From positions 24,080 to 82,117 of the forward strand of contig CAZPID010000001.1 in the NCBI GenBank assembly GCA_964586885.1: 58,038 nucleotides of DNA. Direction: 5' to 3'. The notes under the pieces were generated by a model that had not been told where the DNA came from, did no database searches, and was given only the letters and a program-made list of their open reading frames with translations. Position 1 is the first letter of the stretch. Each line of letters starts with the position of its first letter. Position numbers and translations under genes: made by a program. Positions 4,366-45,184 of this stretch are shown here, piece by piece. The stretch comes from an uncultured archaeon (lineage in GTDB: Archaea; Aenigmatarchaeota; Aenigmatarchaeia; CG10238-14; SCSR01).

Positions 4366-4993
4366 AATCGTAGATATTTTTAGCTATTTTTTTTCCAATT
4401 CCTTTAACTTTAATCATCTCTTCTATTTCAGCATTCACTAATTGTTGAATAGAACCAAACTTTTCTAATAATAGTTCAGCCTTTCTAGGTCCAATATTTG
4501 GAAAACTAGCAACTAGATATTTCATCCTTTGTGCTTTACTAAAATTTATCCTCTCCATTTCAGGAAGTCTAGGTTCATAATTTTCACATTTATCGTGGAA
4601 GTATTTTAAAAATATCGCAGTATCAAAAGGAGTTTCTGTAGAAACCATATTTATGATTCCTTGCTTACCATCTGGTGAACGTTTAAGTATTGTTCCAGCC
4701 ATACTAGAAAGATAAACTTCCTTCTTTAATCTTCTGTGCATCAAAGCCTCAGACATAAATCCCTCGATAATTATCGTTGAAACTTCAAAATTAAAACTCA
4801 TATTATACAGTTGGTTATTCAAATGTCCGCTTATTAGACTGCTAGCATAATCAGAAGCTTCCTTTCTTTCAAAAACCCAATTCCCGATCACGTAATCTCC
4901 AACTTCTAGCTTGGTAAATTCAATTGGCACATTCATATTTTCTAATTGTTTAGGAACGATGGATCTCTTTTCTCTATTATCAATTATTATCAA
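4337..4993 (-). CDS. xpf: XPF/ERCC4-family structure-specific nuclease (short archaeal form with HhH2)
   Basis: ERCC4 signature VGDYVI...VFERKEASDYASSL; C-terminal tandem helix-hairpin-helix FPNIGPRKAELLLEKFGS...VKGIGKKIAKNI. Confidence 0.8.
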   Translation of the reverse strand: MIIIDNREKRSIVPKQLENMNVPIEFTKLEVGDYVIGNWVFERKEASDYASSLISGHLNNQLYNMSFNFEVSTIIIEGFMSEALMHRRLKKEVYLSSMAGTILKRSPDGKQGIINMVSTETPFDTAIFLKYFHDKCENYEPRLPEMERINFSKAQRMKYLVASFPNIGPRKAELLLEKFGSIQQLVNAEIEEMIKVKGIGKKIAKNIYDFVREYVTKS

Positions 4994-5018
4994 CTTTTAT
5001 ACCTCTTTTTGATAATTT

Positions 5019-5819
5019 CTAAATCCATGCTTTTAGTGTACTTTTCGCCTTAACTATTTTTTCCCGAATTCTTTTCTCCGTATTCGGATTGATCTCATAA
5101 CCAACTAATTTCCTGTTCAAATTAATACAGGCTTGTAAAGTTGTACCACTACCAAGACATGGATCAATTATTAGACCATTAGGATTACTACATTTTTTTA
5201 CGATATCCTCAACGATTTGATAATTGGTTTCTGTTAGATTAGTATTTTTTCCTAAATTATAAGGTCTTCTAATACTCTTAGCATCTTCAACATATTCTCC
5301 TTTGGCATTCCAGATTCTATTATCTAAAGGAGGCTTAACAAAATAAAAAATATGTTGATGTGAAATTGTAAAAGTATTTGGAGAATAGACACCAAAAGTA
5401 TAGTCCCAGATTATTTCGCGTAATCTAATAAAGCCCGCATCATAAGCTGGATATAAAACTTGGTTTAATTTGTCTTGTGTATGTCCTTCTCCTTCAAATT
5501 GATTTTTCTTATTTACTACTAAATCCTTAGCATTGACACATGCACTCCACCAAAAACATGAACCTCCTGGCATTAATTTCTTATAAATTTCTCTCATTCG
5601 AATCTCGCACCATTCCTCGAATTCTTCATCTGGAACTTCTACATATCCTTCAATAGCATCATCCGTTCTGTTGTAATTGCTAGCTTCTCCTTTAAAATTA
5701 ATTCCAAAAGGAGGATCAATTATACATAATTCAACGGTACCATTTTCTAGTTCATCCATATTTTTATTATCGTGGAAGTAGACTTTGTAGTCTTCACCTT
5801 CTAATATCATTAGATCCAT
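5019..5819 (-). CDS. DNA methyltransferase (beta-class, probably N6-adenine or N4-cytosine)
   Basis: Catalytic motif IIDPPFGI precedes the AdoMet motif IIDPCLGSGTT; ends STLKAWI; alternative start at ATG 5810. Confidence 0.8.
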   Translation of the reverse strand: MDLMILEGEDYKVYFHDNKNMDELENGTVELCIIDPPFGINFKGEASNYNRTDDAIEGYVEVPDEEFEEWCEIRMREIYKKLMPGGSCFWWSACVNAKDLVVNKKNQFEGEGHTQDKLNQVLYPAYDAGFIRLREIIWDYTFGVYSPNTFTISHQHIFYFVKPPLDNRIWNAKGEYVEDAKSIRRPYNLGKNTNLTETNYQIVEDIVKKCSNPNGLIIDPCLGSGTTLQACINLNRKLVGYEINPNTEKRIREKIVKAKSTLKAWI

Positions 5820-8800
5820 CTCTCCAGAGAAGGAGTGCCCAAAACGTTAGCCCAGCTAATCCCATAATCTTCTAAGATATTTTCAAGTTTTGCCTTTAGA
5901 CTCACATCAATCATTTTTTCCCATGCTATTTCTAAAGTCTTAAAAGCCGTAGGATCCTCAAAAGCAATTACATCTGAAGTATGTCCATTATATTCTTTAA
6001 CGTAAAGATATTGAACCTGATCTCCTCCTTTAATATCAGTTCCCAGATTTAAATTTGCTAAGATCGCTGCTCTAACATGAGCTGGATAGACCTTATATGC
6101 ATCTAATGGTCTATCCATTCCTTTTTTTAATGCTATATCAACCAAGGGCTGTTCTCTAAAATTTCTGATTATCTTAGTAATTTTTTCCCTAACTTCGTCC
6201 TTGTCTAATTTTCTCCTTACAATCAATTCAAGTAGATATTCCTGCGTTTTTTTAGTATATTCACTTTGATCTCCTCTAATAGCATCATATCCCTTAATTT
6301 CTAAAAAGTCACAGTCTCTACCTTTCCAAACACAGTGGCCTGCGTATCTCTTCTTCTTGCCACTGTAAAGGATCGTCTTATAAAATTTTTCAAACTTTAA
6401 AGAAATAGAAACATCACCTAACTTGTATTCATTTTTAAACCATTCCTTCATTAATTGATCTATCTTTTTTCCTATTTCCGGAGCTTCTTCAAATGGAACA
6501 TCTACTTGCAGACCGTCAGTATTATGAACTAAAATATCATTTGCAAAGAAGCACTCCGTGCCTGGAACAGATAAGTCATAAACATAACCATTGTATTCTA
6601 TAGACTCTATCTTTTTCGGATATCTAATTTTTAAATTATTATAGAAAGTTTTCTTCTTATACGGTTGTAATCTCCTATTTTTTCTATCTTGAATAAAACC
6701 AATTTTCTTCTGAAAAGTCTCCCTGTCTAAAACGACCGCGGCATAGCTGTAGGTATTACTGAATTTACCTTTATAATAATTACCTCCTATATCTTTTTTA
6801 ATCCCGCATACTATTCCGACGGACAATAATAATTCCTTTACCTGTTCAACTAGTTTTAAATTAATAGAACCATAGCCGGTATCTCCACCTACAACAATAT
6901 CTCCGTCTGCTGAAAACATTCCACGCAATAATGCACATTTATTTTCTTCGGTTTCCTCGAATATCCAATTTGGAATCTCCTTAGTTTTACTGGTTCCAAC
7001 AAACCCTAATTCTTTCATTAGGCTTTTAAGCATTTTAGACGAAATACATGAATCTCCTTCCTTACCAATCGAATAACCTCTACACCATTTTTCTAATACT
7101 AGAGGTCTAAGTAATTTAACTCCTAACTCAATTGAATCTATGCCTAAACTTTGATAAATATAATATGGCTTATTATCATAAGATCCGTCGCCAATCCAAT
7201 AACCAAAGAATGACATTAACTTTGGACTATATCCTTTGGTTCTAACTGGATATGAAGGAATGTATCTAGGAGACAGCAAACTATGCACATCTGTAGGTCT
7301 TACCAACTGTATCTCAATCGGAGTTTCTGTACAAGGTCTAGGTTTAGTAGAAAATATAGAATGATCTTCTGTAACGTCAACATAATCCATATTTGTAAGA
7401 CTAATTCTATAGACCTTCTTATTGACCTTATGCCTAATAATTTCTATTGCATTTGAAGTCTTAATTTTGCCATTGGAAGTATCACATGTTAGAAGTGGAA
7501 TTCGACATTGTTTTCTTTCTTTACCAAATTTATCTTTAAAAATTGTAGAAGGAATCAAATTCCATAATTTTTCAATTTCAATTTGTCCTATTTTCGTCCT
7601 GATTTTAGTGTCCTTGGTAACACTATCTCCATAGAGTACTGTAAATCCCAAATTTTCAAATTCCTGCTTCATATGTAGAAGTCCTTCTCTACCATATCTT
7701 GTTACTTCACCTCCAACGGACTTCGTATGGAATCTATTGTATCTGGAACTAAGATATCCATAAATTATTTCTGTTAAAGTTTTAATGGCTTCCTTTTCTT
7801 TTTCTACAATTTCATATTCATCGGTTCCTGGAACTAGATGTTCCAGTTTCTCCTCCACCTTATCTCTTAAAAGGATATATTTTCTACAGACTTTGGGAAA
7901 TAATCTATGATTATCGGGGGATAAATTAAAACTAATTATAATATTTGGATAATATCTAGACATATCAAAAACACTTACATTTTCTGAAAGCCCCTTATGT
8001 TCCTGCTCTAAGACCAAGGCTCCTCTAAAAATTTCTTCGTCTTTAGATGTCATAGATCTTAATATCAATCCCTCCTTTTTAGCATCTCTTATCATATCCG
8101 TATCAATTAGAACTGAACCTGCGAATCCTTTCTCAATATGTTCTATCCCTACCATATCTTTTAACCTCCTAAAATAATCTGAAATCCAATAATACTTTTT
8201 ATCAATTTGTACGGTATACCAAACGTCTTTCATGTTATATTTGACTAATTCTTCCGGAGCATTTTCAAACATTTCTTTTACCTTAGCACCTTTGTATGCT
8301 TCGTCCTTTGTAGTCAATTTTTCCTTTAGTGCGATCCTCTTTAGTTTTGGATATCTTGATATCTTGTGGTATTTGGTATATCCTATCATTAAGTCAAATC
8401 TCTCTAATCCATCAAAATCTAGAGGAAGAGATAACTTCTTAGTCCTGTTTAATAAATAATCAAAGTCATATTCAATGTTCCAACCTACCATCATATCCGG
8501 CATAACCTCATAATAACATTTGATAAAATTCGTAAGAAGTTCATCTTCTGTTCTAAAAACAAAAACGTTATTTTTACTATCTGAGTTCAAAGTAGGATGA
8601 TATACAAAACAGAAATATTCTTCCTTATAGGTATCATAAACTGTAATCGCACAAATTGGTTCTTTGGCATCATCAGCATTTGTAAATTTGGATGCTAAAA
8701 CTTCTATGTCCAGATACCATTTCCTTAGAGGAATATCAACGGTGGTTGGATGAATATCTCTACATCTAACATTTTCTAAATCATCGGTATTTATTTCGAC

Positions 8801-9091
8801 TCCAGAAAGAATTTTTTGGTCAATCATAAATCTTCTGGTATAAGGAATATCTGCTTCAAAATGGATAGCATATTTCGATCTTCTCTTTGGAACATCACCG
8901 GGTTCACTAACAACTATTTTCTTTAATTTTTCGTCATAAACGGACTGGTAAATTCCTTCATCATCTTTTACGAAAAAATAAGGCTTGAAGTCTATGACAT
9001 TGAATTTTATTTTTTTATTATCTATTGTCCTCAAATATCCATAAATTAAACTACCATTCGCGTGTAATGAAGTAAGAATCCCACGAACCAT
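5810..9091 (-). CDS. polB: family-B DNA polymerase, interrupted by an intein
   Basis: Exo motifs YLDIEVL, NIEYDFDYL and YNMKDV; motif A DMSRYYPNII; motif B KTLTEIIYGYL; motif C is split as LYGD-[intein]-TDGL. 1093 aa, or 725 aa after splicing. Confidence 0.93.
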   Translation of the reverse strand: MVRGILTSLHANGSLIYGYLRTIDNKKIKFNVIDFKPYFFVKDDEGIYQSVYDEKLKKIVVSEPGDVPKRRSKYAIHFEADIPYTRRFMIDQKILSGVEINTDDLENVRCRDIHPTTVDIPLRKWYLDIEVLASKFTNADDAKEPICAITVYDTYKEEYFCFVYHPTLNSDSKNNVFVFRTEDELLTNFIKCYYEVMPDMMVGWNIEYDFDYLLNRTKKLSLPLDFDGLERFDLMIGYTKYHKISRYPKLKRIALKEKLTTKDEAYKGAKVKEMFENAPEELVKYNMKDVWYTVQIDKKYYWISDYFRRLKDMVGIEHIEKGFAGSVLIDTDMIRDAKKEGLILRSMTSKDEEIFRGALVLEQEHKGLSENVSVFDMSRYYPNIIISFNLSPDNHRLFPKVCRKYILLRDKVEEKLEHLVPGTDEYEIVEKEKEAIKTLTEIIYGYLSSRYNRFHTKSVGGEVTRYGREGLLHMKQEFENLGFTVLYGDSVTKDTKIRTKIGQIEIEKLWNLIPSTIFKDKFGKERKQCRIPLLTCDTSNGKIKTSNAIEIIRHKVNKKVYRISLTNMDYVDVTEDHSIFSTKPRPCTETPIEIQLVRPTDVHSLLSPRYIPSYPVRTKGYSPKLMSFFGYWIGDGSYDNKPYYIYQSLGIDSIELGVKLLRPLVLEKWCRGYSIGKEGDSCISSKMLKSLMKELGFVGTSKTKEIPNWIFEETEENKCALLRGMFSADGDIVVGGDTGYGSINLKLVEQVKELLLSVGIVCGIKKDIGGNYYKGKFSNTYSYAAVVLDRETFQKKIGFIQDRKNRRLQPYKKKTFYNNLKIRYPKKIESIEYNGYVYDLSVPGTECFFANDILVHNTDGLQVDVPFEEAPEIGKKIDQLMKEWFKNEYKLGDVSISLKFEKFYKTILYSGKKKRYAGHCVWKGRDCDFLEIKGYDAIRGDQSEYTKKTQEYLLELIVRRKLDKDEVREKITKIIRNFREQPLVDIALKKGMDRPLDAYKVYPAHVRAAILANLNLGTDIKGGDQVQYLYVKEYNGHTSDVIAFEDPTAFKTLEIAWEKMIDVSLKAKLENILEDYGISWANVLGTPSLERWI
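6521..7624 (-). mobile_element. PolB intein (368 aa) with LAGLIDADG homing endonuclease
   Basis: In-frame insert inside YGD/TDG. It starts SVTKDTKI, has block B TEDHS and two LAGLIDADG motifs (FFGYWIGDGSY, LLRGMFSADGDI), and ends FANDILVHN followed by a +1 Thr. Confidence 0.85.
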
Positions 9092-11673: not shown

Positions 11674-11969
11674 TATTTAACCTCCAATCTCGCATCAGTA
11701 TCAGGAGACTCGTCCTCCTTTGGATGAAAATCTTTATCTGCTTGAGGTTTAATTTCAGTTACGATTGTAGGAATCCGTTTTGCTGAATTTTCAAGATCAT
11801 ATTTTTTTATTAAGATTATAAAAGTAGGATGTAAAAGCCTTTTATTTCCTGGATCAGCTTTCAACCATGTATAACAAAATGAACGAACAAACGAACCTTC
11901 TGAATCATTATTGGAAGTAGTATATGCTAAAGTATCAAGTTCTTCTAAGGTAGGATTAAGCTGGAACAT
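11673..11969 (-). CDS. hypothetical protein
   Basis: 98-aa track ORF coupled to both neighbours within the modification operon. Confidence 0.5.
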   Translation of the reverse strand: MFQLNPTLEELDTLAYTTSNNDSEGSFVRSFCYTWLKADPGNKRLLHPTFIILIKKYDLENSAKRIPTIVTEIKPQADKDFHPKEDESPDTDARLEVK

Positions 11970-13062
11970 GAGTAGGATCCCTATATTCTGAATAATGACT
12001 TTGGAATTTTGCGTCTAAAATATTGTCTAAGCCATTCTTCTGCGCATAATGTTCTGCAAACCAAGCATAACTCCAAAAGCATCCTGGACATAATTGTTTA
12101 CCACCATAAATTTTATCTAGGATTTCCTTTCGACCGTCTTTCCAACCTAAGCGGAAGACTGAAATTCTCTCTTTCATATAGTTAGAATAAGAACAACTTC
12201 TTAAAGTTCCATCTGCTTCGATATCAATTATTAATCCTGAATTGCAGTGCCACAACATTTCTGGTGCTAGATCCACACCATGTTCAAAATATTCAATCGG
12301 ATTTTGTACCATTACTTCACCACTTTTTACCATATCGGCTATCTCATGCATTACGTTTTTTAAACTAACATGATCCTGCTCTCTAAACAGGAAACTAGGC
12401 ATAAGATCATCAGAAAAGAAATCATATTTTTCATCTTTTTTATGTTCAACGAAATTAAGTCCAGCCCAAATTTCTTTAGATGTCATATATCTCAGAAGTT
12501 CAGGAATCTTTTTATAATTTTGTCTATGAATTGTAATGGTCCCTTGGACATCTGGAACGCCATGATTCTTAAACCATTGTAATTGTTCTAGCCCCCAAAT
12601 ACTTTTCGTATCAATATCCTTATCTCCTGTTGTTCCCCCCATAATATCGATCCCGCAACTAATATTGTATAAGCCGGCTTCTACCATAGGTAATCTTAAT
12701 TTCTGATATTGTGGTTCAACAAAAGTAGAATACATTGCATACCTTCCAAAATATCCAAAATCTTTTAACGCTCTTATTAGTTCTATTATCCAAGGATAGA
12801 GCAATACTTCATTTCCTAAAATTAAGAAAAATTTTACTCCCATATCACTTAGAATATTAAAAGCTCGAATCCACTCCTGTGGTTTTAAAAGGCCTTCCTC
12901 AGGGACCACGTCTTTACTGCCACAATAACTACATTTGCGAGGACAATATCTTTGAATAAACAAGCATGCATATCTTGGATTATCTGCTCTCTTTATTTCA
13001 AATCTCTTGACATTTTCTCCAAGAACATTGATATCATTTTTATAAATACTACCCGATTGCAT
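11956..13062 (-). CDS. radical SAM enzyme with SPASM/twitch-like C-terminal domain
   Basis: CPRKCSYC (CX3CX2C), GGE-like ILGNEVLL, C-terminal HCNSGLIIDIEADGTLRSC and CPGC. Confidence 0.8.
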   Translation of the reverse strand: MQSGSIYKNDINVLGENVKRFEIKRADNPRYACLFIQRYCPRKCSYCGSKDVVPEEGLLKPQEWIRAFNILSDMGVKFFLILGNEVLLYPWIIELIRALKDFGYFGRYAMYSTFVEPQYQKLRLPMVEAGLYNISCGIDIMGGTTGDKDIDTKSIWGLEQLQWFKNHGVPDVQGTITIHRQNYKKIPELLRYMTSKEIWAGLNFVEHKKDEKYDFFSDDLMPSFLFREQDHVSLKNVMHEIADMVKSGEVMVQNPIEYFEHGVDLAPEMLWHCNSGLIIDIEADGTLRSCSYSNYMKERISVFRLGWKDGRKEILDKIYGGKQLCPGCFWSYAWFAEHYAQKNGLDNILDAKFQSHYSEYRDPTHVPA

Positions 13063-13900
13063 TCCTCATCAATTCCTCATAACTCCGATACCATAATTTA
13101 TTTCTAAGCTTACCTTTAAGTTCTTGTAAAGCTTCTGGAATAAATCTCTGTCTAAAATAAAGTGAATCGCCATATTTCTGTCCATCTTCAATTCCGTATT
13201 TTTCCTTTGCAATTAAATGCGCTAATCTTCTATTGCAACAGCAGCCACATTTTCCTTCAGTAGCCATTAAAGTTCTAAAATCGACTGGATTATCTTCAAT
13301 ATCAATCGGAGCTAAATCACAGGACCAAGTATAATTATAAATCCAACCAAATCCATTATCATGTCCCCATTTTAAGATTTGTGGTTTGTCCATCTCATTT
13401 TCTGGTGATATAACTTTCGGAATAAATTTGTTGCAACCGTATTCTAACATGTGACTAAATCTGTCTAAGAACTCCTTAGTATTGTCTTTGTAGCTCCACT
13501 CACTAGCATTGGTTCCTAATGTGATATATTCTGCTTCAATATGTTCTGCATAAGATGCTGCTAATGCTAAAAATACCACATTTCTAGCTGGAGTCCAAAT
13601 TTCATCAATCGTTGTTGCAGACTTCCTCAAGCTGTCCATTCCTTCTGGAACAGGAATATTCTCATTAGTTAAACATGAATCTTCTCCAAATACTGGAGTC
13701 TTTACAATTTCTAATTTAATTGGATAACCTTCTTCTTGTAATTTGCTAGCAATAAATCTACAGCTTGCTTTTTCTCCTCTCTCAGATCTTTGACCAATAG
13801 AAAAATGCATTAGATATACTTCATATCCTTTCTTAAGCATCATCAACGAATTGGTTATAGAATCCATTCCACCAGATGTTACACATACAGCTTTTTTCAT
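13049..13900 (-). CDS. queC: QueC-family PP-loop ATPase (7-cyano-7-deazaguanine synthase-like), paralogue 1
   Basis: VTSGGMDS PP-loop, TPARNVVFLALAA, C-terminal Cys cluster WSCD...GKCGCCCNRR; 283 aa. Confidence 0.75.
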   Translation of the reverse strand: MKKAVCVTSGGMDSITNSLMMLKKGYEVYLMHFSIGQRSERGEKASCRFIASKLQEEGYPIKLEIVKTPVFGEDSCLTNENIPVPEGMDSLRKSATTIDEIWTPARNVVFLALAASYAEHIEAEYITLGTNASEWSYKDNTKEFLDRFSHMLEYGCNKFIPKVISPENEMDKPQILKWGHDNGFGWIYNYTWSCDLAPIDIEDNPVDFRTLMATEGKCGCCCNRRLAHLIAKEKYGIEDGQKYGDSLYFRQRFIPEALQELKGKLRNKLWYRSYEELMRNAIG

Positions 13901-14052
13901 TTTTCTGATTCCTCCTGTACATAACTTGACATGATTTCATCAAATTCTTTGTCAGTTATTTTACATAATTTTTCATAGAATGCCTGAGCTGATTCTTTAC
14001 ATTCTGGATATCTTAAAACTATTGATCTAACTAAATAACTAACTCTCACCAT
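13897..14052 (-). CDS. small ORF (51 aa, below the track cutoff)
   Basis: ATG at 14052..14050 overlaps the queC-2 stop, and the TGA overlaps the queC-1 ATG (ATGA); MVRVSYLVRSIVLRYPECKESAQAFYEKLCKITDKEFDEIMSSYVQEESEK. Confidence 0.4.
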   Translation of the reverse strand: MVRVSYLVRSIVLRYPECKESAQAFYEKLCKITDKEFDEIMSSYVQEESEK

Positions 14053-14804
14053 ATAGCCACTCCATGTTTCTTTAATACTGCTTTCATCATATCTTCTCTG
14101 GCTCCTACATATTTTCCATCGTTGAGACCTCTTATGTATTGTGTTTTCATCAATCTACTTTTTAATGGATTCCTGACAAAAGAAATAGGACCATCTCCAT
14201 CTAGATTACTGGCTTCTAAAGCAAACCACATCCTTATACATGCTGCACATCTTCCACATGGATCTTTAGTACCACTAAAGCAAGAATAAGTACGTTTTAA
14301 TAATTCTATCCCGTTCTCGTGGTTAGACAAAACATAATCTACAATTCGTTCCTTAGTAATATTGGCAAAAGGAGAAATTATCGTAATATTTTTTTTATCA
14401 GCTTCACTTAAAGTCATTTGTAAAAGTCTATTAAATTTACTAGTCCTATCTCCAATATTTGATTCTCCTAACTGAACATTCTGCAAATAGATATTTCCTC
14501 CATCAGACAAATAATAACATGCTATACCTGCTAAAAATAAGTTTCTATAAGGAATGTGCGAATCCTTTTTTTCATATTCTCCTAAATCGACTCCTTTATG
14601 TATCTGAAAATCTACATCTAACTGTGATATTAATTTATGAACTGCCAATATCTCACGACTTTGATAACGACTACCTAGAGCAACATAAAGTGCTAAAACT
14701 TCTTCTTTTTTAAATTTCTTCAAAGCTATCAATAATGCTGCTAGGCTGTCAACTCCTCCTGATATCAGAACTATTGCTTTTTTAGACAAGACGTATTTCC
14801 CCAC
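14046..14804 (-). CDS. QueC-family PP-loop ATPase, paralogue 2
   Basis: LISGGVDS PP-loop, IPYRNLFLAGIA, YSCFSG...PCGRCAACIRM zinc motif, plus a roughly 50-aa C-terminal extension. Confidence 0.75.
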   Translation of the reverse strand: MGKYVLSKKAIVLISGGVDSLAALLIALKKFKKEEVLALYVALGSRYQSREILAVHKLISQLDVDFQIHKGVDLGEYEKKDSHIPYRNLFLAGIACYYLSDGGNIYLQNVQLGESNIGDRTSKFNRLLQMTLSEADKKNITIISPFANITKERIVDYVLSNHENGIELLKRTYSCFSGTKDPCGRCAACIRMWFALEASNLDGDGPISFVRNPLKSRLMKTQYIRGLNDGKYVGAREDMMKAVLKKHGVAIW

Positions 14805-15396
14805 TTCTGATCATTTGATAAGCTCTCATTTCTAATTCTCTGTCATCCCTGAACCTTTCTGAAGCTGAACTAATTTTAACTATTGTTTGTGGATCTTCTA
14901 TTCCTCTGAAGAACATACATGTATGCAGACCAACAGTATATATCAAACATGCATGAGGCCTTACATGCTTCATAAAAAGGTTTCTGGCTTTCGCTGCATA
15001 ATCTTCCTGCAACTGTGGAAATTTTCCTAGTTCTACCAAGAACCTAGGTATCTTTGAAAGCCCTACTACTTTCTTCTCCCCTTGCTGATCTGGAATAAAT
15101 ATTAACCATACCTTTATAATCGCAGGAAGAAAATGGTGTGGGCACAACATCTTAACGGTCACAGGACCTACACATTCCATAGCGTCTGATATTGTTGGAA
15201 ACATTGTTCCCAAGTGTTTAACGGCATCTTTTTCATTATATGGATTAGTAAACTCTTTAAGCCAATTAGATATCCTGCCTGGAGAATCTTTAAAGTTTGG
15301 ATCATTTAAATCAATATTTAAAGACTTTAATAATTCCAATGATTTGTCATGGATCTTATCTCCATCTCCATATTCTATGTTCTCTTTTATTTCCAT
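14782..15396 (-). CDS. folE: GTP cyclohydrolase I
   Basis: MLCPHHFLP, VVGLSKIPRFLVELGKFPQLQED, HTCMFFRG. Confidence 0.8.
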   Translation of the reverse strand: MEIKENIEYGDGDKIHDKSLELLKSLNIDLNDPNFKDSPGRISNWLKEFTNPYNEKDAVKHLGTMFPTISDAMECVGPVTVKMLCPHHFLPAIIKVWLIFIPDQQGEKKVVGLSKIPRFLVELGKFPQLQEDYAAKARNLFMKHVRPHACLIYTVGLHTCMFFRGIEDPQTIVKISSASERFRDDRELEMRAYQMIRSGEIRLV

Positions 15397-17160
15397 CTAT
15401 GTTCCTCTTTCATTGCCATAAAGCATGATCTGTAACCTTGGACTATATCTGATTCCATATTTTTTACATTCTTCAACTAGCCAAATACTATTTCTAGTAA
15501 TCGTCTTAGCATCTATACCCAAAGGCATGAAATAGGTCTTACTTGTCGGTATTTGAAATGGTTGGAGAAAGTCGTCAAAAACTTCCTTGATATCTTCTTT
15601 ACGACCAATAACAAACTTAAATTTAGTTCTGCTGTTCCTATTAAACCATTTTAGAGCAGGTGCAATAATCCTTTTATCTCTTGGCATTTTAGAATTAGAA
15701 AGTTTTGGACTTACGTCATAATATATTGGAAATGGCTCCTGTTCAAAAATTATCGTACCATTAGTTTCAATTTCATAACTTCTTATCCAAGGAAATTCCT
15801 CCTTAACTTGTATGAGCAGTTCTGCCAAACCTTCTTGAACTAAAGGTTCTCCTCCAGTAAAAATCACATGTGCATTTGCAAAGGCCTGAATCCTTTTCAT
15901 AATATCTTCAGAGTTCATTGGTACAAATTCAGTAGGTAAATTTCTCATCTTAATTAACTCTGGTACTGCATATGGAGTATCACAATTATGAGCTAAAATA
16001 CCATTTGCATAATAGTTATGATTTGAAGTCCTAAAATTGTAAACTGTAAGTTGGTAGCATTCTGGATAGTGTTTAAAACCTTCATTATGTCTACAATTCT
16101 TGATTCTTCTAGCTCCCATTCTGACTAATTGTTTAGGATTTGAAACTTTAGAAATAGATGTTACCCTTGTTCCATTGGTAATAAATCTATTAACTCTATC
16201 AATCATATTATTTCTACCATTATTATTTTTTTGGTATATTCTTCCGTTAACATCAAGCATTAAACACTCCCATCCAAAATTTTTGAAAAATATTTTTCTT
16301 TCCTCCGACCATCTTTCATCTCTATCCATATAAGTAGGATCATAAAGTTCAATAATTTTTTTCTGTCCTATGACTTTAAAGTCTGGATTTCTAAATTTTT
16401 TTATTTTGTTACCTATCCATAATTTAGCATTTCCTACATATTCTATCGGTAAATTATTCATTTCGAATTCATTAATTGCAATTTTTTCTAATCCGCTTGG
16501 TCTATGTTTATGAGACTTCATATTTTTTACCACTATTTCAGGATCGAACATTGGATTATGAATTTTTTTACAATTACTCTGATTTTTTCTCCATTCTTCT
16601 GTACGCAAATATGGTTTAATTTTTCCACTACCATATCCTTTCCTAACAGAATCTGCTACCTTTTTAACTATATTTTTATCTTTCATTGGATTATAATTTT
16701 TCATCTTCCAAGAAAGATAAGTTTCTCTAGGTAATCTATCTATTAATTCATCTATCTGTAATTCTTTTGCTCTTACATATTGTCCTCGATCTATAGAATA
16801 AATTGGATGCTCTTTAGTTACAAACAATGAAATGCCATGATCAAATGTTATCTTAATTATTTCAAGACCAGATACTTCTCTTCTGAAAATATCTTGTACG
16901 ACCTGTAATTCTAATTCACCTTTACTACCTTTGCCTAAAATTCTCTCTCCAATTTTAATATCTTTAGCCTTTTTAGTTCCGTTTTCACTATAGATTCTAG
17001 TATTTGGTATTAAACAATACCCACAAAATAAGTTACACCCATAGAACCTGATAAAAGTTGTTGGTTCACCAACAAAATAACCTTCTCCTTGTATTGAAGA
17101 AAATATCTCTGAGATTGCATATTTTAGATCTTTCCTTAAATTTATTTTTTGCGTCTCCAT
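15397..17160 (-). CDS. queE: 7-carboxy-7-deazaguanine synthase (radical SAM), interrupted by an intein
   Basis: [33 protein letters not shown]-[intein]-CDTPYA; 587 aa, or 243 aa after splicing. Confidence 0.85.
15985..17016 (-). mobile_element. QueE intein (344 aa) with PD-(D/E)XK/Vsr-like endonuclease core
   Basis: Starts CLIPNTRIY, block B VTKEHPIY, ends [11 protein letters not shown] with a +1 Cys. The core ([35 protein letters not shown]) resembles the free-standing HEG at 10193..10981. Confidence 0.8.
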
Positions 17161-25024: not shown

Positions 25025-25047
25025 TATTTGTTAATTCTGTGTATGTA

Positions 25048-25065
25048 ATATAAAGTTTTATGTAT
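25048..25065 (-). promoter_or_regulatory. BRE/TATA-like promoter element (variant ATACATAAAACTTTATAT)
   Basis: 16/18 match to the 18-mer at 45865..45882 and 3928..3945; ends 23 nt upstream of the ATG at 25024, consistent with a leaderless or short-leader transcript. Confidence 0.45.
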
Positions 25066-25136
25066 ATTGCTTATAAAATATTTCTTCTCGTTTCACAGAA
25101 ACATAAGTTAAAATAACAAAAAAAGTATATTTTTTT

Positions 25137-25283
25137 ATGTATATGAAACCAGTCGGTTTAGACGAAGAATCCTATGGGATCTTAAAAAAGGTAAGGAATA
25201 CCCTAAAGAAAAAGGGAATTAATGGCGTAACATTTAGCGATGCTGTTAAAAAACTTGCTGAAAATCATTCATTGGTAAAATAA
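25137..25283 (+). CDS. ribbon-helix-helix-like small protein (48 aa, below the track cutoff)
   Basis: MYMKPVGLDEESYGILKKVRNTLKKKGINGVTFSDAVKKLAENHSLVK shows a beta-strand plus two helices pattern; it is the only plus-strand ORF inside the minus block. Confidence 0.4.
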   Translation: MYMKPVGLDEESYGILKKVRNTLKKKGINGVTFSDAVKKLAENHSLVK

Positions 25284-25337
25284 ATACCATACCAAAACCC
25301 AAATCAATTACACAAAGATAAAAAGTATTATCTTCAA

Positions 25338-26651
25338 TTATCTGTTTAAGTTGGTCCACATCATTGCTGTATCAATGGACATTGCTTTATCTCCATACTG
25401 TATTGCTTTAGCTTCATGCTTTTTATCAAATAATCTCGAACCTCTAGTGCCTTTCTTTTTAATAATAATTATTCTTTCAGTTTCTAACAATGTATGCAAC
25501 ACATTTTTTAGTTGAGATTTTGGCCACATTAATTTCTTATATACCTCGCTCCATGGAATGCCATCTTCTTTTGCTTTTTTGATATGACTGAACATAATAT
25601 CTGCTTGAGGTGCCAATGTTGTAATAGGTATTGTGGTTGTCATGCTGCTCCATTGGCCTAACATCATCTGGAAATGCTTATGATGATTTCCTACTTTATT
25701 AATTCCCCAAACCATACTTTCTTCACTGATCGGAAATTCTGAAGCTGGAAATTGAGGAAGAGTTTCTATCAATTTACTAAGCTCATAAAGTCCGGCCAAC
25801 TTTAAAGCAAACTCTGGTAAACGTGTAAGATAGGAATAATGAATATCTAAGAAATCATTGGCATATATCCTAAAAGCTTTATCAAAACATTTCTTCCTAA
25901 ATTCAACCCACATTGCTGCAGCTTCAGGATTTGGCATTAATACTTGAATAGGATTTTCTGCCACATGCGTTAACATTTCTGCAAATTCATGCATCTTATC
26001 TTCCATCTCCATAGATCTCTTAATGTTAAGAAAAACGTCTTCTACGGACAGAATATTAGAACGCGTAGTTTCATGAATTATATACATGAACCTGTTACCT
26101 GTTCCCTGCAAGAAAAATTCAGGTTTCATTATTCTATACAAATATGGAGTCGTAGCTCCTAAGAATGTGATATAGGTATCTTGGGCTTCTTCCAGTTTTG
26201 CTTTCCTTGTATATCTTTTTTGCGCGATTCCATCATAAAGTTCAGAAAGAAATTCTATCATATCTGCCAGATATTCCTTGTTTGCGTCTTTAAACAGACT
26301 GCTTGCTTCATCCCTAATAATACATCCCCAAGGATGATCTTTGCTTAGCCATTCAATAAATCCTTCCACACTGAATCTATTTGGCATGATTACTGGATAG
26401 TTTATCTTTTGTGTTATTTCTGCCAATATTGGAAAGACCATAGAAGTTAAAGGAGTAGTTTTTGCCGCTAATCCACTCGGCCCAATCATCATAAACCAAG
26501 TATTTAAATGAAGACGACCTAAACTGGTTCTAATATATTTGTCCCTTGTTACCATTGTAGAAATCATAGTGGTAGCAATGCTCTCGGCCCAGAGTTCTGA
26601 AGTCGGAATATTTTCTAAGATAAAATCTTTAAAGTCCTCAATAAAGTGCAA
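25338..26651 (-). CDS. P-loop NTPase, putative replicative helicase-like protein (TTG start)
   Basis: 437 aa; Walker A-like MMIGPSGLAAKTT, Walker B-like CIIRDEASSLF; family assignment (DUF3987-like) is tentative. Confidence 0.45.
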   Translation of the reverse strand: MHFIEDFKDFILENIPTSELWAESIATTMISTMVTRDKYIRTSLGRLHLNTWFMMIGPSGLAAKTTPLTSMVFPILAEITQKINYPVIMPNRFSVEGFIEWLSKDHPWGCIIRDEASSLFKDANKEYLADMIEFLSELYDGIAQKRYTRKAKLEEAQDTYITFLGATTPYLYRIMKPEFFLQGTGNRFMYIIHETTRSNILSVEDVFLNIKRSMEMEDKMHEFAEMLTHVAENPIQVLMPNPEAAAMWVEFRKKCFDKAFRIYANDFLDIHYSYLTRLPEFALKLAGLYELSKLIETLPQFPASEFPISEESMVWGINKVGNHHKHFQMMLGQWSSMTTTIPITTLAPQADIMFSHIKKAKEDGIPWSEVYKKLMWPKSQLKNVLHTLLETERIIIIKKKGTRGSRLFDKKHEAKAIQYGDKAMSIDTAMMWTNLNR

Positions 26652-26818
26652 ATCACAATCCTCGTAGTTTTTGTAATTGTATTAGACCGTTAAAAAATTT
26701 TTGTTATTTTTCCAAATGCACAATCCAACCACACTCATTGACATTCTATCTCTTGCCATAGTATTTTCTAGTGATAAGGTTATTTATTCTTGTTTTTTCT
26801 CAGTATGATCGAATAATA

Positions 26819-26843
26819 AACTCAGTACAGATAGTGTACTGAG
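26819..26843. repeat. perfect 9-bp inverted repeat (hairpin/operator) in a divergent intergenic region
   Basis: ACTCAGTAC-agatagt-GTACTGAGT; a related CTCAGTATGA lies just upstream. Confidence 0.6.
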
Positions 26844-26886
26844 TATGAAAACAATACTTTTTATTTTTTAAAAAAATAGAGTAATT

Positions 26887-27354
26887 ATGAATCATAACGA
26901 AACGACATTCTATCAGAATACCATTGGAATGGGATTTCAAACCTTCCATAGTGGCCTTCCAGATTTCCTACTTATTGTAGGAAATAAAATTTTATATGTT
27001 GAAATTAAAAGTTCAGAAAATACCCAAATTCCTTATAGACAATATATCGCTCTCAAAGCTCTGCATGATGCTGGAATAATAGTAGGAATCTGTTTCGATG
27101 GTGATATTAACTCAATATTCCGTTTCAATCCTAAATTTAAAAGGAATCTCCAACTTTATCTTATAGAAAAAAATTTACCAAAAATAAGTTTAGGCCAGAT
27201 TATGGGACTTTACCACAAAGAAAAAGAATTAGCCCTTCCAATAAAAGAACAGAGTTTTGAAAGAAAACTAGAAACCTTAGCTGATAAAAAAGGTAAGAAA
27301 CCTGAAGAACTAACTGCAGAAGAAATCTTCCCAGTAAAGCAGGACCTATCGTAG
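26887..27354 (+). CDS. VRR-NUC / PD-(D/E)XK nuclease (resolvase-like)
   Basis: GLPDFLLIVGNKILYVEIKS (D...ExK) followed by IPYRQYIALKALHDAGIIVGI. Confidence 0.55.
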   Translation: MNHNETTFYQNTIGMGFQTFHSGLPDFLLIVGNKILYVEIKSSENTQIPYRQYIALKALHDAGIIVGICFDGDINSIFRFNPKFKRNLQLYLIEKNLPKISLGQIMGLYHKEKELALPIKEQSFERKLETLADKKGKKPEELTAEEIFPVKQDLS

Positions 27355-27722
27355 AGAATGTTTGGTATTCAGTATAGTATTATATCTATACTTTTACTAA
27401 TAGATCTACGATACCCATAGAATAGCAACGATACCCACTATGTTATATATAGTAGTCGTTGATATCGTAGATCTAGAACCTGTAGTTTTACGACAAATGT
27501 CGACCTATCGTAGAGAACGTAGAGGAATACCAGCTTGGGATCTACGATAGTATACTACCTTCAACATTCTCTATTTGCTTCTATTTTTGCATTCTATAAG
27601 GTTGACAACTAGATAGTAACTACTAAAGAAGGAAATACAAATACCAGAACATTTCAAACAAAATACTAAATAACTTACATAGAATAAGCTATTCGTAGAT
27701 GAGGTGGAGCAAAAAGTCTACG
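27343..27722. repeat. iteron array (8 copies of CGTAGA/TCTACG core; candidate origin or protein-binding array)
   Basis: ATCGTAGA at 27348, 27464 and 27507; CGTAGA at 27518 and 27694; TCTACGAT at 27405 and 27541; TCTACG at 27717. 16-bp direct repeat GACCTATCGTAGAGAA at 27343 and 27502. 13-bp inverted repeat TAGATCTACGATA (27401..27413) / TATCGTAGATCTA (27463..27475). ACGATACCCA occurs twice (27408, 27428). Confidence 0.7.
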
Positions 27723-28059
27723 GATTCATCAGAAAATTTCATAATTGACTCCACCAATAAAGTTGTTTAATGATTCAAATCTTTATTAAATGATGGTTCA
27801 ATAACCAAGGAAATACGTTAAATACCTAGATGAGAAAATAATTTTAGTCTATACATTTTCTAGATGGTCCTGGAATGTTGTAGACTGCGTAACAAGCGCA
27901 ACTCCAATCCTGGTTGGTGGCATGACTTTTATGTCACTAACCACTTTTATTTAAAAAAGTGATATGTTCAGAAAGTTTATGGTTAGGCAAACGTCAGTAC
28001 GAAGACACGCATAAAAAAACTTCAGAACATACCACAAAAATACTTTCTGCTACAAGTAA

Positions 28060-29385
28060 TTAGGTTTTTTGTACTGAAATACCATATTGAGTAGACAGCC
28101 ATTCGATCCAGATATTCCATGTTAGTGAGCCAAACCCAATTTGATTATTTTTCTTTTTACCTAATTGTTCCATCATATCCATTATTTCTCCTAGTGTTAA
28201 ATCATCACCAACTAACTTTCTTTTAGATTCTGCCATTAGAGCGATCAGACCTGAAGAATGTGGAGTGGCCATTGACGTGCCAGAGATAGCTCCATAACGT
28301 TGAATTAACTTATCAGTTAAATCTAAAACTCCAACTAAGGGTGCATCTATATTGACTCCTGGTGCTACAATATCTGGTTTTATTCTCCCGTCTTTGGTAG
28401 GGCCTCGACCACTAAAATTTGGTACTTTTCCATCAAAGGTACTAAATGCTCCAACAGTTAAAACATTTGGTAACCAACCAGGAGTTGAAACAGATCCAGG
28501 TTCTGGCCCCGAATTTCCAGAAGCGATAACTGGAATAAGTCCTTGTTCTTCAGCTTTGATCATGGCTTCGAAATAGACATCCTCTTCAGGTTTTTGCATT
28601 TCCTCGGGAACATCTCCACCTAAACTCATTGATAAAACTTTAGATCCATTCTCTAAGGCTATTTCAATGCCACCTAAAATACTTCCATCAGTTCCTATAC
28701 CAATTCCAAATCCCAATGACTTAACTGAAGTAAGTTCAACTTCTGGGGCCATTCCTTCAGTAGGTATTCTTTCACCTACCAGTCTTGAAGTGACATCGTC
28801 TATAGTTAATTTCCCTCCTACACAGGCAGTTGTCCACGTTCCGTGACCGTTTTCATCTCTCAGTTGAGGTAGAGTTCTTTTAAATTCCACTCTGTCGAGT
28901 AAGGCTTCATGTGTTCTGGAAGCTCCAGTATCTACAATCGTTACCCTAATCCCCCTCCCTAGGAATCCCGCATTGTTCGCTATGTCGGCTCCTATAACTT
29001 TTTTACTAAAAAATGTAGAAGTAATTATTTTTCCTTTAAAATTAAAGGTTCCTGGAGGCGATTCACTGAAAGCAAATTTTTCTTCATCGGGGAAGATCTT
29101 TTCAACATCGGGATCTTCAGCTAAGTCAAAAATATCTTCTCTGCCAATGAAGGCAGAGATCATATTTAGCTTAATAAAGGACTGACCTAATGTTTCTGGA
29201 ACAGGTACTTTTTCTCGAAATCTGGGCAAAATTCTATCCTCTTGAATAAATTTAGAAAGATCTAAATTTTTTACAGTTTCTATTAGTGGTCCAAGTCTAC
29301 CTGGTTTTGCTAATATGATGACTGGAGTCGCAACTCTTGATTGCGCTCTTATTTCAGCAAGCCTAGTCAGTGAACTATTGATCAC
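28060..29385 (-). CDS. subtilisin-like serine protease (peptidase S8)
   Basis: Catalytic triad motifs VTIVDTGAS (Asp), NGHGTWTTA (His) and SGTSMATPHSSG (Ser). Confidence 0.9.
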   Translation of the reverse strand: MINSSLTRLAEIRAQSRVATPVIILAKPGRLGPLIETVKNLDLSKFIQEDRILPRFREKVPVPETLGQSFIKLNMISAFIGREDIFDLAEDPDVEKIFPDEEKFAFSESPPGTFNFKGKIITSTFFSKKVIGADIANNAGFLGRGIRVTIVDTGASRTHEALLDRVEFKRTLPQLRDENGHGTWTTACVGGKLTIDDVTSRLVGERIPTEGMAPEVELTSVKSLGFGIGIGTDGSILGGIEIALENGSKVLSMSLGGDVPEEMQKPEEDVYFEAMIKAEEQGLIPVIASGNSGPEPGSVSTPGWLPNVLTVGAFSTFDGKVPNFSGRGPTKDGRIKPDIVAPGVNIDAPLVGVLDLTDKLIQRYGAISGTSMATPHSSGLIALMAESKRKLVGDDLTLGEIMDMMEQLGKKKNNQIGFGSLTWNIWIEWLSTQYGISVQKT

Positions 29386-31642: not shown

Positions 31643-32894
31643 ATGAAAGTAGTCGCTGTCATCTCTCTAAACGGCTGATAAAGTCGGGAGCTAAGGTGGC
31701 ACGGGAAAAACTTTATGCGCTATAAACATCGCGCATTATCTGAAAAAAAAGTATAAAGCAACAGTTGGTCTTATAGATGCGGATTTAGATTCTAGTAATT
31801 TTGCTGATATGGTAAATTTAAAAGATAAGGTTAAGATCACAGAAGACAAAAAGTTTTCTCTTCCTCAATGGGATGGAATTAAGGTCTTTAGTATGTCTCT
31901 AATGATAGACAAAAAACAGAGTATCAGTATGACAGCTGACAGATATGTGCAGATGCTAAATGATGTAATCGAACAAACGCAGTGGGACGTAGATTATATG
32001 ATCTTAGATATGCCAGCAGGAAATAGTGATGTATACAAAGCATACTTAGCTTTCTTTGATCGTCAGATAATTGGTGACATAGTTATTATTCAGCCTGCAG
32101 CTATTTCAGACGCTTACAGAATAATAGATACTCATAAAAGATTTGAAGTGCCTATTTTGGGACTAATAGAAAATATGTCAGGATTTCAATGTGTTGAATG
32201 TAAGAAGAAAGAAGATCTATTTGGTCCAACAATCGTGGATAAACTTGCTAAGGAATTTAAGTTGGAATCACTAGGAAAAATTCCACTAACTGGAGAAATT
32301 ACTGCAGGAGTAAAAAGAGGAAATCCAGTTCTTTCTCCAAAATTAAACAAACCAATTCTGGTAGCATGTGAAAGAATTGTCAAAGCTCCAATACGAACTA
32401 CTAGTTTCTTGGAAAGGTTAAAAGATAGAGTTGGTACTATTTCTAGAAATTTGGTAGAAAAAGTAATGCTGGAATTTATAGTTTCTGCTAATGAGCATTT
32501 AAATTTAGGACATATTCAGTCCGAGACCGGTTTTACTGAATCTAGACCGTTTGATTTAGTCATAATTAATCAACAGGAACAGGAGGTGATAAAACGTATT
32601 CCGCTAAGATTTGTTGATGGAATGATGAAAGTTGCAAAGACTGAAAGGACTCCAGATTTTGAGCTACATACTAGTTTCCAAACTTTAGCTAGAATATTTA
32701 TGGGAAAAATGAAAGTAGGAAATGGAAAGATTGATTATGATCCTCTAGGAGCTTGGCTTAATGGTGATATTACAGTTTACGGTATGGCTCATTCTCCTTG
32801 GGCTTTTAGTGTTTTACAGGAGATCTTTGGTAATGAAAAAGTAATACACGAGGTCAGAAGCAAATTTGGAAACTTGCTCGAGAGATTTATTTGA
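31643..32894 (+). pseudogene. Mrp/ApbC/NBP35-type Fe-S cluster carrier ATPase fused to an SCP2-like domain; 5' end disrupted
   Basis: ATG at 31643 gives MKVVAVISLNG, then TGA TAA (31676..31681). The P-loop GGTGKT (31695..31712) lies in the frame of track ORF 31809..32894 but is cut off by the TAA at 31692..31694. Downstream motifs are ILDMPAGNSD and ENMSGFQCVECKKKEDLFG. Confidence 0.55.
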
Positions 32895-43488: not shown

Positions 43489-44250
43489 ATGACCCAAATT
43501 CGATCTCATATGGTAGATAAAAAAGTGGATTATTTAGGAACTGGAAATCCTAATTGGAAAGGAGGAAGGCAGAATACGAATTGTATTATTTGTGGCAGGA
43601 TAGTCTATATTGGTCCTAAATATAAAAATAAGAGGATTCATTGTTCTAGAATATGCTGGGGTATAACTAGAAAGAATGAAATGTTGAATGGACAATTTAA
43701 GATTCCCATGTATAAAGTTCATCCTAGAGGGATGCTGGGTAAGTCTCATTCTAAATATACTAGGAAATTGATTTCGAAGAAACTTAAAGGCAGGAGGCCA
43801 CATAATAAATATCACCTTATTGGTAGGTATGGTAACGATAATCCAGCAACTAGACCAGAGGTAAGAGAAAAGATTAGGATAGCTAGGTTAAAACAAAAAA
43901 TGCCTACTAAAGATACTAATATTGAAAAAATAATTAAACACAAATTAGAAATTTATCATATCAAATATCAACAGAATTCTCCAATCGAAAATCTGTGTCA
44001 ACCAGACTTTGTAATAGAAAGTAGAAAAGTAGCAATCTTTGCCGATGGATGTTATTGGCATGGATGTCCAATTCATTGTCCTGATAGGGCAGAAAGGAGG
44101 TTGAGAGATCAAAATCTTACTAATTTATTAGTTTCAAAAGGGTGGATGGTCCTACGATTTTGGGAACATGACATTTTAGATAATCTAGAATATATTGAAG
44201 ATATTCTACAGAGGACCCTAGGAATGGAAAGATATGTCAAAAATTCCTAG
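43489..44250 (+). CDS. free-standing homing-endonuclease-like protein (paralogue 3, Vsr-like)
   Basis: CIICG...CSRIC zinc ribbon; basic NUMOD-like repeats; Vsr hallmark QPDFVIESRKVAIFADGCYWHGCPIHCP...VLRFWEHD. Confidence 0.7.
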   Translation: MTQIRSHMVDKKVDYLGTGNPNWKGGRQNTNCIICGRIVYIGPKYKNKRIHCSRICWGITRKNEMLNGQFKIPMYKVHPRGMLGKSHSKYTRKLISKKLKGRRPHNKYHLIGRYGNDNPATRPEVREKIRIARLKQKMPTKDTNIEKIIKHKLEIYHIKYQQNSPIENLCQPDFVIESRKVAIFADGCYWHGCPIHCPDRAERRLRDQNLTNLLVSKGWMVLRFWEHDILDNLEYIEDILQRTLGMERYVKNS

Positions 44251-45184
44251 ATATTATGGTATCAAGAAAAGATATCCTCGACTTCCTGGTGATAAATGGA
44301 AGGCATATTTACAAATGATTAGACCTTTTACCGTTTTTGCTGCTGGATTGGCTGGAATATTTTTAGGAATTACCTTTACTTTACTTTCAGGTGGTACTTT
44401 TGGTGATGGAAAGGTTATCTTATTAGGATTAACTTTAGGACTTTTACAGGCTGGTGGGCAATGCTTTAATTTAAGTTATCCAAAAGAAATTGAAATTGAT
44501 AAAATCAATAAGCCTTATCGTCCTACAGTTACAGGTCTAGTTACTACCAAATCAGGATTTATTTTATCATTTATTTTATTTGGTATTGGAAATTCTACTG
44601 CTTTTTTGCTAGGATTAGAAGCTGGAATAGTATCATTAGTCATAACATTGTTCGCAATTTTCTATACAGCATCTCCAATTAGAGCCAAGGAAAGATTTAT
44701 GGTTGGTAATATATATCAAGGAATAGCCAGAGGACTTTTACCACCAATATTCGCGAGTATGATCTTTGGTTTTTATGAATTCGCCATAGTCTACGGCATC
44801 GCTATAGCGTTATGGATTACAGGTTTCCAATCAACTAAAGACTTTGATGATATAGAAGGAGATAGACAGTTCGGAATTAAAACTTTACCAGTTGTTTTAG
44901 GAAGACGAGGTACTATATCAGCGATGATGGTAATGCTAATAGCGTCTTCCGTGCCTCTTTATTTAGGTTTTGCATTAGGAATTATTCCAAACGAGCCAAT
45001 ATGGTTCTTAATATTTGCTCCATTGATCATATCAATTAAGATTCTGACGACTTTAAAGAAGGATGTGAAGATGGTACGTATGGAAAATTCTCTCAGTTGG
45101 GTCTATTTTTATTTGACATTAATGTTCTGGTTTATGATTCCAATGGCAATAGTAGGAATAAAATATGTCAATTCAGTCTTATGA
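44234..45184 (+). CDS. UbiA-family prenyltransferase (DGGGP-synthase-like)
   Basis: 316 aa, multi-TM; EIEIDKINKPYRPTVTG and KDFDDIEGDRQFGIKTLPVVLG. Confidence 0.8.
   Translation: MSKIPRYYGIKKRYPRLPGDKWKAYLQMIRPFTVFAAGLAGIFLGITFTLLSGGTFGDGKVILLGLTLGLLQAGGQCFNLSYPKEIEIDKINKPYRPTVTGLVTTKSGFILSFILFGIGNSTAFLLGLEAGIVSLVITLFAIFYTASPIRAKERFMVGNIYQGIARGLLPPIFASMIFGFYEFAIVYGIAIALWITGFQSTKDFDDIEGDRQFGIKTLPVVLGRRGTISAMMVMLIASSVPLYLGFALGIIPNEPIWFLIFAPLIISIKILTTLKKDVKMVRMENSLSWVYFYLTLMFWFMIPMAIVGIKYVNSVL

Follow-up and report, generated by a model that had tools for sequence, protein, structure and literature searches.

How do the viruses and plasmids of uncultivated archaea begin to copy their DNA, and at which sites? 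To our knowledge, replication origins have almost never been mapped in such elements, and it is unclear how the MCM-like helicases encoded by viruses reach the DNA. The question is raised here by a 58,038-bp stretch of contig CAZPID010000001.1 (hereafter the window, meaning this stretch at its full length), assembled from an uncultured archaeon of the Aenigmatarchaeota, in which a dense array of short repeats lies 0.7 kb from the gene of an MCM-like helicase of the DUF3987 family. Homologues of this helicase and of a neighbouring protease are present in archaeal metagenome-assembled genomes (Bathyarchaeota, Archaeoglobi, Thermoplasmata, Heimdallarchaeota and Conexivisphaerales), and the element is therefore taken to be an archaeal virus or plasmid; searches of IMG/VR and a phage database found essentially no close relatives. 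We argue that the array is probably, if by no means assuredly, the iteron-type replication origin of this element, a putative assignment drawn from its sequence, its variation between haplotypes and the arrays that accompany related helicase genes.

A preliminary description of the locus had reported eight copies of the hexamer CGTAGA/TCTACG within 380 bp, where chance would supply well below one, together with nested longer repeats, two AT-rich stretches and a position between convergent genes, and all of these features were recovered. The window holds 20 copies of the hexamer, of which eight lie within 27350-27722 (beginning at 27350, 27405, 27466, 27509, 27518, 27541, 27694 and 27717) and the other 12 are scattered singly. 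Given the background set by those 12 (0.08 copies per 380 bp), a Poisson model assigns eight or more copies a probability of 3.5e-14, and the frequency count that had been proposed as a check thus shows the cluster to be non-random. The longer repeats comprise a 16-bp direct repeat, GACCTATCGTAGAGAA, at 27343 and 27502, a perfect 13-bp inverted repeat (27401-27413 and 27463-27475) and a 10-bp repeat, ACGATACCCA, at 27408 and 27428. The largest non-coding gap of the window, 705 bp long, separates two convergent genes, and its left part is taken up by the array; the two genes are a small open reading frame (ORF) for a nuclease, described earlier as VRR-NUC, whose stop codon falls inside the first site, and a subtilase gene.

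The actual repeat unit is longer than the hexamer. It is the 9-mer TATCGTAGA, with the extended form (C/T)TATCGTAGA(G/T), and the window contains five perfect copies of it, beginning at 27347 (+), 27405 (-), 27463 (+), 27506 (+) and 27541 (-). All five fall inside 203 bp (27347-27549), in both orientations and around two AT-rich blocks, where 0.003 copies would be expected (about 0.7 in the whole window), and no copy occurs in 4.3 kb of sequence added to the right of the window. This is the strongest 9-mer cluster of the window; Markov-chain simulations (n = 60) produced at most 3 copies in 250 bp. Three further copies, at 27518, 27694 and 27717, are degenerate, with 6-7 of 9 bases matching, and two subtypes of the 9-mer, CTATCGTAGAGAA and TATCGTAGATCTA, recur. 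Sites in inverted orientation enclose the AT-rich blocks, with 27347 (+) and 27405 (-) standing around block 1 and 27405 (-) and 27463 (+) around block 2. The GC content of the blocks is 20% (27361-27400) and 22% (27438-27455), and a 30-bp stretch at 27373, with 13% GC, is the 7th least stable 30-mer of the 58-kb window (top 0.05%). Two features of iteron-type origins are thus present, namely a non-coding cluster in which a short sequence recurs three or more times, beyond what chance would give (here five perfect and three degenerate copies), and an easily melted AT-rich segment adjoining it. The sequence GATC is neither depleted genome-wide nor notably clustered at the array.

That these words are read by a protein is indicated by a diverged haplotype, allele B, which is represented by contigs from several samples (L108/L113, L111, L112 and L114) and bears out the conservation in related contigs that had been named as a check. 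Over 15 kb, a stretch that takes in all of the DUF3987 gene and the gap's right part (27650-28060), allele B is 96-100% identical to the window, and only a hypervariable cassette between these flanks has diverged, to 45-76% identity; the nuclease encoded in it has a homologue with only 60% amino-acid identity. The diverged block nevertheless holds four perfect copies of TATCGTAGA in allele B, where 0.004 would be expected. Of these, only the one that corresponds to 27541 occupies a homologous position; where the window has its sites at 27463 and 27506, allele B has a flipped and a shifted copy respectively, one copy is extra, and the window sites at 27347 and 27405 have partial counterparts only. 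The AT-rich blocks and ACGATACCCATAGAATA are retained, and the overlap of site 1 with the nuclease stop codon is lost. The sites are thus kept as a word while their surroundings diverge, as in iteron-type origins, and a word that persists through the turnover of its copies is the mark of duplex sites bound by a conserved protein acting in trans. The pattern of the TATCGTAGA sites fits protein-binding sites under selection, and it is very likely that the array is a cluster of such sites. The distal pair of hexamers (27693-27723) sits in a segment that is 99-100% conserved, and the comparison of alleles is consequently uninformative for it. The cassette itself suggests the recombinational exchange of a module (26700-27650).

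A candidate for the conserved protein is encoded next to the cassette. The product of 25338-26651 carries a DUF3987 domain, aligns with the helicase half of phage primase-helicase fusions, and contains Walker A-like and Walker B-like motifs. Its AlphaFold model, built with 32 homologues, has a mean pLDDT of 89.3, and the top PDB fold matches of this model are all MCM subunits (E down to 2e-7, probability 1.0). Residues 346-409 of the model form a winged helix (helix-helix-helix-strand-strand), the family profile weakly matches winged-helix proteins over the same residues, and the winged helix is identical in both alleles. DUF3987 proteins have been described as superfamily 6 (SF6) helicases, distantly related to MCM, that bear a winged helix-turn-helix at the C-terminus and are proposed replicative helicases (PMC4889955), and for one member, the partner of a primase-polymerase, 5'-3' helicase activity has been demonstrated (PMC11724360). 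The linkage in cis of a helicase gene, 0.7 kb away, is a further feature that the array has in common with iteron-type origins.

The association between helicase gene and repeat array extends to relatives of the element. We assembled 80 metagenome loci with helicase homologues of 25-47% identity and scored an array wherever the 400 bp that follow the helicase stop codon held four or more copies of an 8-mer, counting both strands. Such arrays were present in 9 of 57 metagenome loci, compared with 4 of 719 background windows and none of 63 upstream 400-bp windows (Fisher p = 1.9e-8), and the first figure is an undercount because period-4 motifs such as GTTAGTTA (L037, L078) were filtered out. 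In an independent set of loci from GTDB genomes, 6 of 7 have their highest-ranking k-mer cluster, across the locus as a whole, starting 0-115 bp past the helicase stop. The relatives' arrays are non-coding and typically consist of inverted copies around a low-GC, AT-rich centre, with a different word in each lineage (TAACGCTA, GTTAGTTA, ATACGAAA in 10 copies, GAATTATC, CTCTAAAA, AAATTATG and GTAATTAC); the long-range clusters that were inspected (n = 4, in four loci) were all protein-coding repeats in one orientation. Homologues of PolB and of the primase are also present in the helicase loci. Pairs of loci with a common motif have winged helices that are 47-72% identical, and a pair with 54-58% identity has different motifs. 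Scans of genome and viral collections with a three-site pattern returned no matches. A rule emerges at the level of the family: in archaeal elements, the gene of an MCM-like DUF3987 helicase has beside it inverted iterons that are specific to the lineage and surround an AT-rich centre. No prior description of this rule was found in the surveyed papers that mention DUF3987.

Three smaller observations belong with this comparison. One relative (L025/L109, 61-70% identity) has no array after its protease gene, and its contig ends 31 bp before the helicase gene. Another locus (L047, 3220-3330) carries a second repeat family, GTAAACGA-like and in both orientations, after its 10-copy ATACGAAA array. 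In the window, the interval directly 3' of the helicase gene (25025-25337), where relatives carry arrays, holds a 48-aa RHH-like ORF and no iterons, and it includes one of the window's least stable 100-bp stretches (25046).

On the reading that we favour, the five perfect and three weaker copies of the extended 9-mer, lying in both orientations, would be binding sites for an initiator encoded by the element, and their most plausible reader would be the C-terminal winged helix of the DUF3987 helicase. The initiator would assemble on the inverted sites so as to bracket the AT-rich blocks, the duplex would open at these blocks, and helicase rings would be loaded there. The element's primase, family-B polymerase and RFC-type clamp-loader proteins would then copy the DNA outward in both directions, co-oriented with two divergent gene modules. 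Three parts of this scheme we infer: which protein binds the sites, the melting of the AT-rich blocks and the start of replication at the array. The preliminary description had envisaged an origin with ORB-like elements, matched to a virus-encoded set of MCM-like protein, primase, PCNA, RFC and PolB. Its proposal of an origin has gained from the word kept in allele B, from the MCM-like helicase 0.7 kb off and from the relatives' arrays, and of the replication set PCNA was not confirmed. The ORB-like part held for the layout alone. About 50 ORFs were scanned (small ORFs and the rest of the contig lay outside the scan) and none matched Orc1/Cdc6, the AAA+ proteins among them being RFC-like, MCM-like and MoxR-like; because no Orc1/Cdc6 gene was found, the array is ORB-like in layout only and is not a member of the ORB/Orc1 class.

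Several points weigh against an origin at the array. In relatives the array lies 3' of the helicase gene, whereas here it lies 0.7 kb past the 5' end of that gene, beyond the nuclease ORF, and because the position differs we can only infer that it is equivalent to the arrays of the relatives. The spacing of the sites is long and irregular (58, 58, 43 and 35 bp), and the AT-rich block ranks 7th, not as the least stable stretch of the window, which would make for a modest unwinding element. The diverged cassette joins the nuclease ORF to the array. The scan for other arrays covered about 62 kb of the contig, whose length is at least 82 kb. GC skew, finally, offers no independent support: the cumulative GC/AT skew that had been put forward as an origin test has its minimum at about 29-30 kb, and the skew is +0.20 on the coding strand regardless of gene position or direction, so that it follows the coding strand and its minimum marks only the switch in gene orientation.

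The alternatives raised in the preliminary description, namely a repressor-binding, partition or packaging site, have all been weakened by these results, and each keeps a low probability. It is unlikely that the 9-mers are operator or copy-control sites bound by a small regulator, such as the 48-aa RHH-like protein encoded at 25137-25283, with the array not being a start site at all. Short sites in both orientations are typical for dimeric regulators, the motif is kept across alleles, and the small RHH-like ORF is conserved beside the helicase gene, also in L025. The array is nonetheless placed between convergent gene ends, after a stop codon and away from a promoter, and TATCGTAGA is absent from the promoter gaps at 25025-25136 and 26652-26886 (with no explicit archaeal promoter model). 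Operators, moreover, have no need of AT-rich centres, and the arrays of relatives follow the helicase stop codon, often between convergent genes.

We consider it improbable that the array is a partition site (parS), that is, an adaptor-bound centromere working with the ParA/NUBPL-like ATPase encoded at 31809-32894. In favour of this possibility, short direct and inverted repeats are often clustered at plasmid centromeres, and a ParA-family gene is present 4 kb away. Four genes separate that gene from the array, however, and the two are not adjacent; the ATPase matches the Mrp/NBP35-type model PF10609, which is not partition-specific; and in the flanks that were fetched the ParA-like homologue occurs in none of the array-carrying helicase loci and travels instead with the protease, as in L110.

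The third alternative, to which we likewise give little credence, makes the array a target of the PD-(D/E)XK nuclease in recombination (for resolution, or as part of a mobile cassette) or else a packaging (pac/cos) site. Because the diverged cassette contains both nuclease ORF and array, and does so as one block between near-identical flanks, a link between the two is conceivable, and the overlap of the first site with the nuclease stop codon would agree with it; this overlap, however, is not retained in allele B, and in relatives the arrays come after the helicase gene whether or not a nuclease gene is near. Close to both cassette borders there is a weak 19-nt inverted repeat (26779-26797 and 27656-27674), which speaks for this alternative, but it is AT-rich and has a complementarity of only 79%. 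The ends of several metagenome contigs in the vicinity of the array likewise speak for it, yet contig breaks are also expected where two haplotypes diverge in assembly, and neither a terminase nor an integrase was found among the ORFs scanned. Finally, it is very improbable that the inverted repeats act as a folded RNA or single-stranded DNA structure and not as duplex binding sites, because a fold would preserve pairings and not the word, whereas allele B keeps the word and alters the possible pairing partners with no compensatory pattern, the better folding of the region as single-stranded DNA relative to shuffled versions (z = -4.5) follows automatically from the inverted repeats, and there is no Rfam match even at E = 1. 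A tRNA, an attP site or a non-coding RNA was also considered and rejected: no tRNA, no Rfam match (at the gathering score or E = 1) and no integrase was found.

The origin that we favour would lie between two gene modules that point away from it (Table 1). All genes from 1 to 26651 are on the minus strand, including those for PolB (with an intein), a PriS-like primase, 7-deazaguanine synthesis, a MoxR-like ATPase, a VWA protein and the DUF3987 helicase. To the right of 29437 genes are nearly all on the plus strand, including those for the ParA/NUBPL-like ATPase, RFC-like proteins, an MCM-AAA-like protein, and the lipid proteins UbiA and geranylgeranyl reductase. Two large gene modules are thus transcribed away from the 26.7-29.4 kb region. 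No terminal repeats were found in the window.

Table 1. Positions of the array, its sites and the neighbouring features in the window (cells are left empty where nothing is recorded)
Feature	Position	Strand	Remarks
RHH-like ORF, 48 aa	25137..25283		In L025, too, kept beside the helicase gene
DUF3987 / SF6 MCM-like helicase with C-terminal winged helix, 437 aa	25338..26651	-	0.7 kb from the array; candidate initiator that would read the sites
Hypervariable cassette (~950 bp)	26700..27650	.	Promoter gap, nuclease ORF and core array; 45-76% identity to allele B
Small PD-(D/E)XK nuclease ORF, 155 aa	26887..27354	+	Weak VRR-NUC and Hjc-like matches; clear PD...E-x-K motif
Site 1, cTATCGTAGAg	27347..27355	+	Holds the TAG stop of the upstream nuclease-like ORF
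AT-rich block 1, 20% GC, candidate DNA-unwinding element	27361..27400	.	Core 27373-27402 has 13% GC; partly kept in allele B
Site 2, TATCGTAGAtcta	27405..27413	-	One arm of the perfect 13-bp inverted repeat
Two ACGATACCCA copies, 20 bp apart	27408..27437	+	One, within ACGATACCCATAGAATA, kept in allele B
AT-rich block 2, 22% GC	27438..27455	.	TATATATAGTA kept in allele B
Site 3, TATCGTAGAtcta	27463..27471	+	Second arm of the 13-bp inverted repeat; allele B site here reversed
Site 4, cTATCGTAGAgaa	27506..27514	+	Inside the 16-bp direct repeat in common with site 1
Degenerate site 5, AACGTAGAG	27515..27523	+	
Site 6, cTATCGTAGAtcc	27541..27549	-	The only site with an unchanged, positionally homologous counterpart in allele B
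Distal weak inverted pair, tTCGTAGA ... TCTACGg	27693..27723	.	17 bp between hexamers
Subtilase (protease) gene	28060..29385	-	Right border of the gap

Further features of the window deserve mention in their own right. To the right of the array, a hairpin with a 15-bp stem followed by a T-run (27911-27943, plus strand, within 27855-27955; RNA fold z = -4.56) resembles a terminator; it sits in the part of the gap that is 99-100% conserved and could end transcripts running through the array. The protease gene is polymorphic at about 28274, with a product of 749 aa that includes an intein in the alternative haplotype (L108, 386-2635) and one of 441 aa without it in the window. Inteins are also present in PolB (5810-9091) and in a radical-SAM gene (15397-17160). 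The latter belongs to a 7-deazaguanine cluster of the queuosine/archaeosine type (11956-17160), with genes for GTP cyclohydrolase I, two QueC-like proteins and radical-SAM proteins, and this cluster suggests that the element modifies its own DNA. Archaeal lipid genes, for two UbiA prenyltransferases and a geranylgeranyl reductase, are carried on this mobile element as well (44234-45184, 51110-52264 and 53165-54166). A different word, ATTATCAA, occurs in four copies within 250 bp (4976-5224) at an ERCC4/methylase gene junction; there are 10 copies in the window, and the grouping may be due to chance.

An iteron-type origin at this locus would have implications beyond a single element. One attractive if tentative possibility, which we hold to be clearly short of probable, is that the DUF3987 helicases of archaeal viruses and plasmids are self-loading initiator-helicases, in which a fast-evolving winged helix reads the iteron of the lineage and the AT-rich element is opened with no need for Orc1/Cdc6. 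If so, such a helicase would be an archaeal counterpart of the large T antigen of simian virus 40 (SV40), built on an MCM-type motor, and the cassette of nuclease and array would be an exchangeable origin module. Should the helicase itself bind the sites, this would amount to Orc1-independent loading of an MCM-type helicase. The locus supplies a testable pair in the 9-bp word TATCGTAGA and its candidate reader, the winged helix of the DUF3987 protein, and the family-level rule likewise makes the mechanism by which these helicases are loaded directly testable. The same rule, an array with an AT-rich centre beside the helicase gene, could serve to predict origins in the mobile elements of uncultivated archaea.

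How, then, does the array compare with systems that are already understood? The ori/crr of satellite phage P4, with its alpha protein, is an iteron-type origin beside the gene of an initiator-helicase. In the archaeal plasmid pRN1, a parallel that has been defined by experiment, the minimal replicon needs 166 bp downstream of orf904, the helicase-primase gene (PMC4234260, PMC3869888). Both resemble the present locus in having short repeated sites in non-coding DNA beside the gene of a replicative helicase, and in the C-terminal DNA-binding domain of that helicase, which here is predicted to be a winged helix; the placement of the pRN1 origin directly past the helicase stop codon is matched by the arrays in the relatives of this helicase. 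They differ in that the helicase here is SF6 and MCM-like (DUF3987), not of superfamily 3 (SF3), and lacks a fused primase, and in the position of the array, which in the window is 5' of the helicase gene with the nuclease ORF in between. Moreover, pRN1 uses a stem-loop, whereas the array consists of multi-copy iterons.

At archaeal chromosomal origins, origin recognition boxes (ORB and mini-ORB) bound by Orc1/Cdc6 flank an AT-rich unwinding element. The array shares with them the inverted repeats that flank AT-rich DNA, the proximity to the gene of an AAA+ protein of replication initiation and the MCM-type helicase as presumed cargo. It differs in the lack of an Orc1/Cdc6 match noted above and in the size of its sites, which are 9 bp as opposed to about 20-35 bp; in a comparison with no ORB model run, TATCGTAGA is also not known to have ORB features such as a dyad and a G-string.

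A further parallel is the core origin of SV40 and the polyomaviruses with its large T antigen (PMC1779811), in which, as here, short words in inverted pairs stand beside AT-rich DNA. There the words are read by the DNA-binding domain of the helicase itself, which is self-loading, and this is the likeness that we propose for the DUF3987 helicase. The SV40 helicase belongs to SF3 and has an unrelated origin-binding domain, and its pentamer sites are closely packed, in contrast to the intervals of 26-58 bp between the sites here. A last parallel is offered by an unrelated phage contig (L022, IMGVR_UViG_3300033153_003077; 43% GC), in which, at 6995-7283, a stretch of pure A/T is surrounded by seven copies of the identical 9-mer TATCGTAGA, directly next to a DUF5906 SF3 primase-helicase gene. 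We looked for a DNA-binding protein common to this contig and the window and found no protein similarity; the contig came to light through a search for the motif itself, and the identity of the 9-mer is for that reason most likely a coincidence. The phage locus is probably best regarded as a good functional analogue with a coincidentally identical word. Set beside these systems, the array is a further case of a familiar type of element, in a little-studied group.

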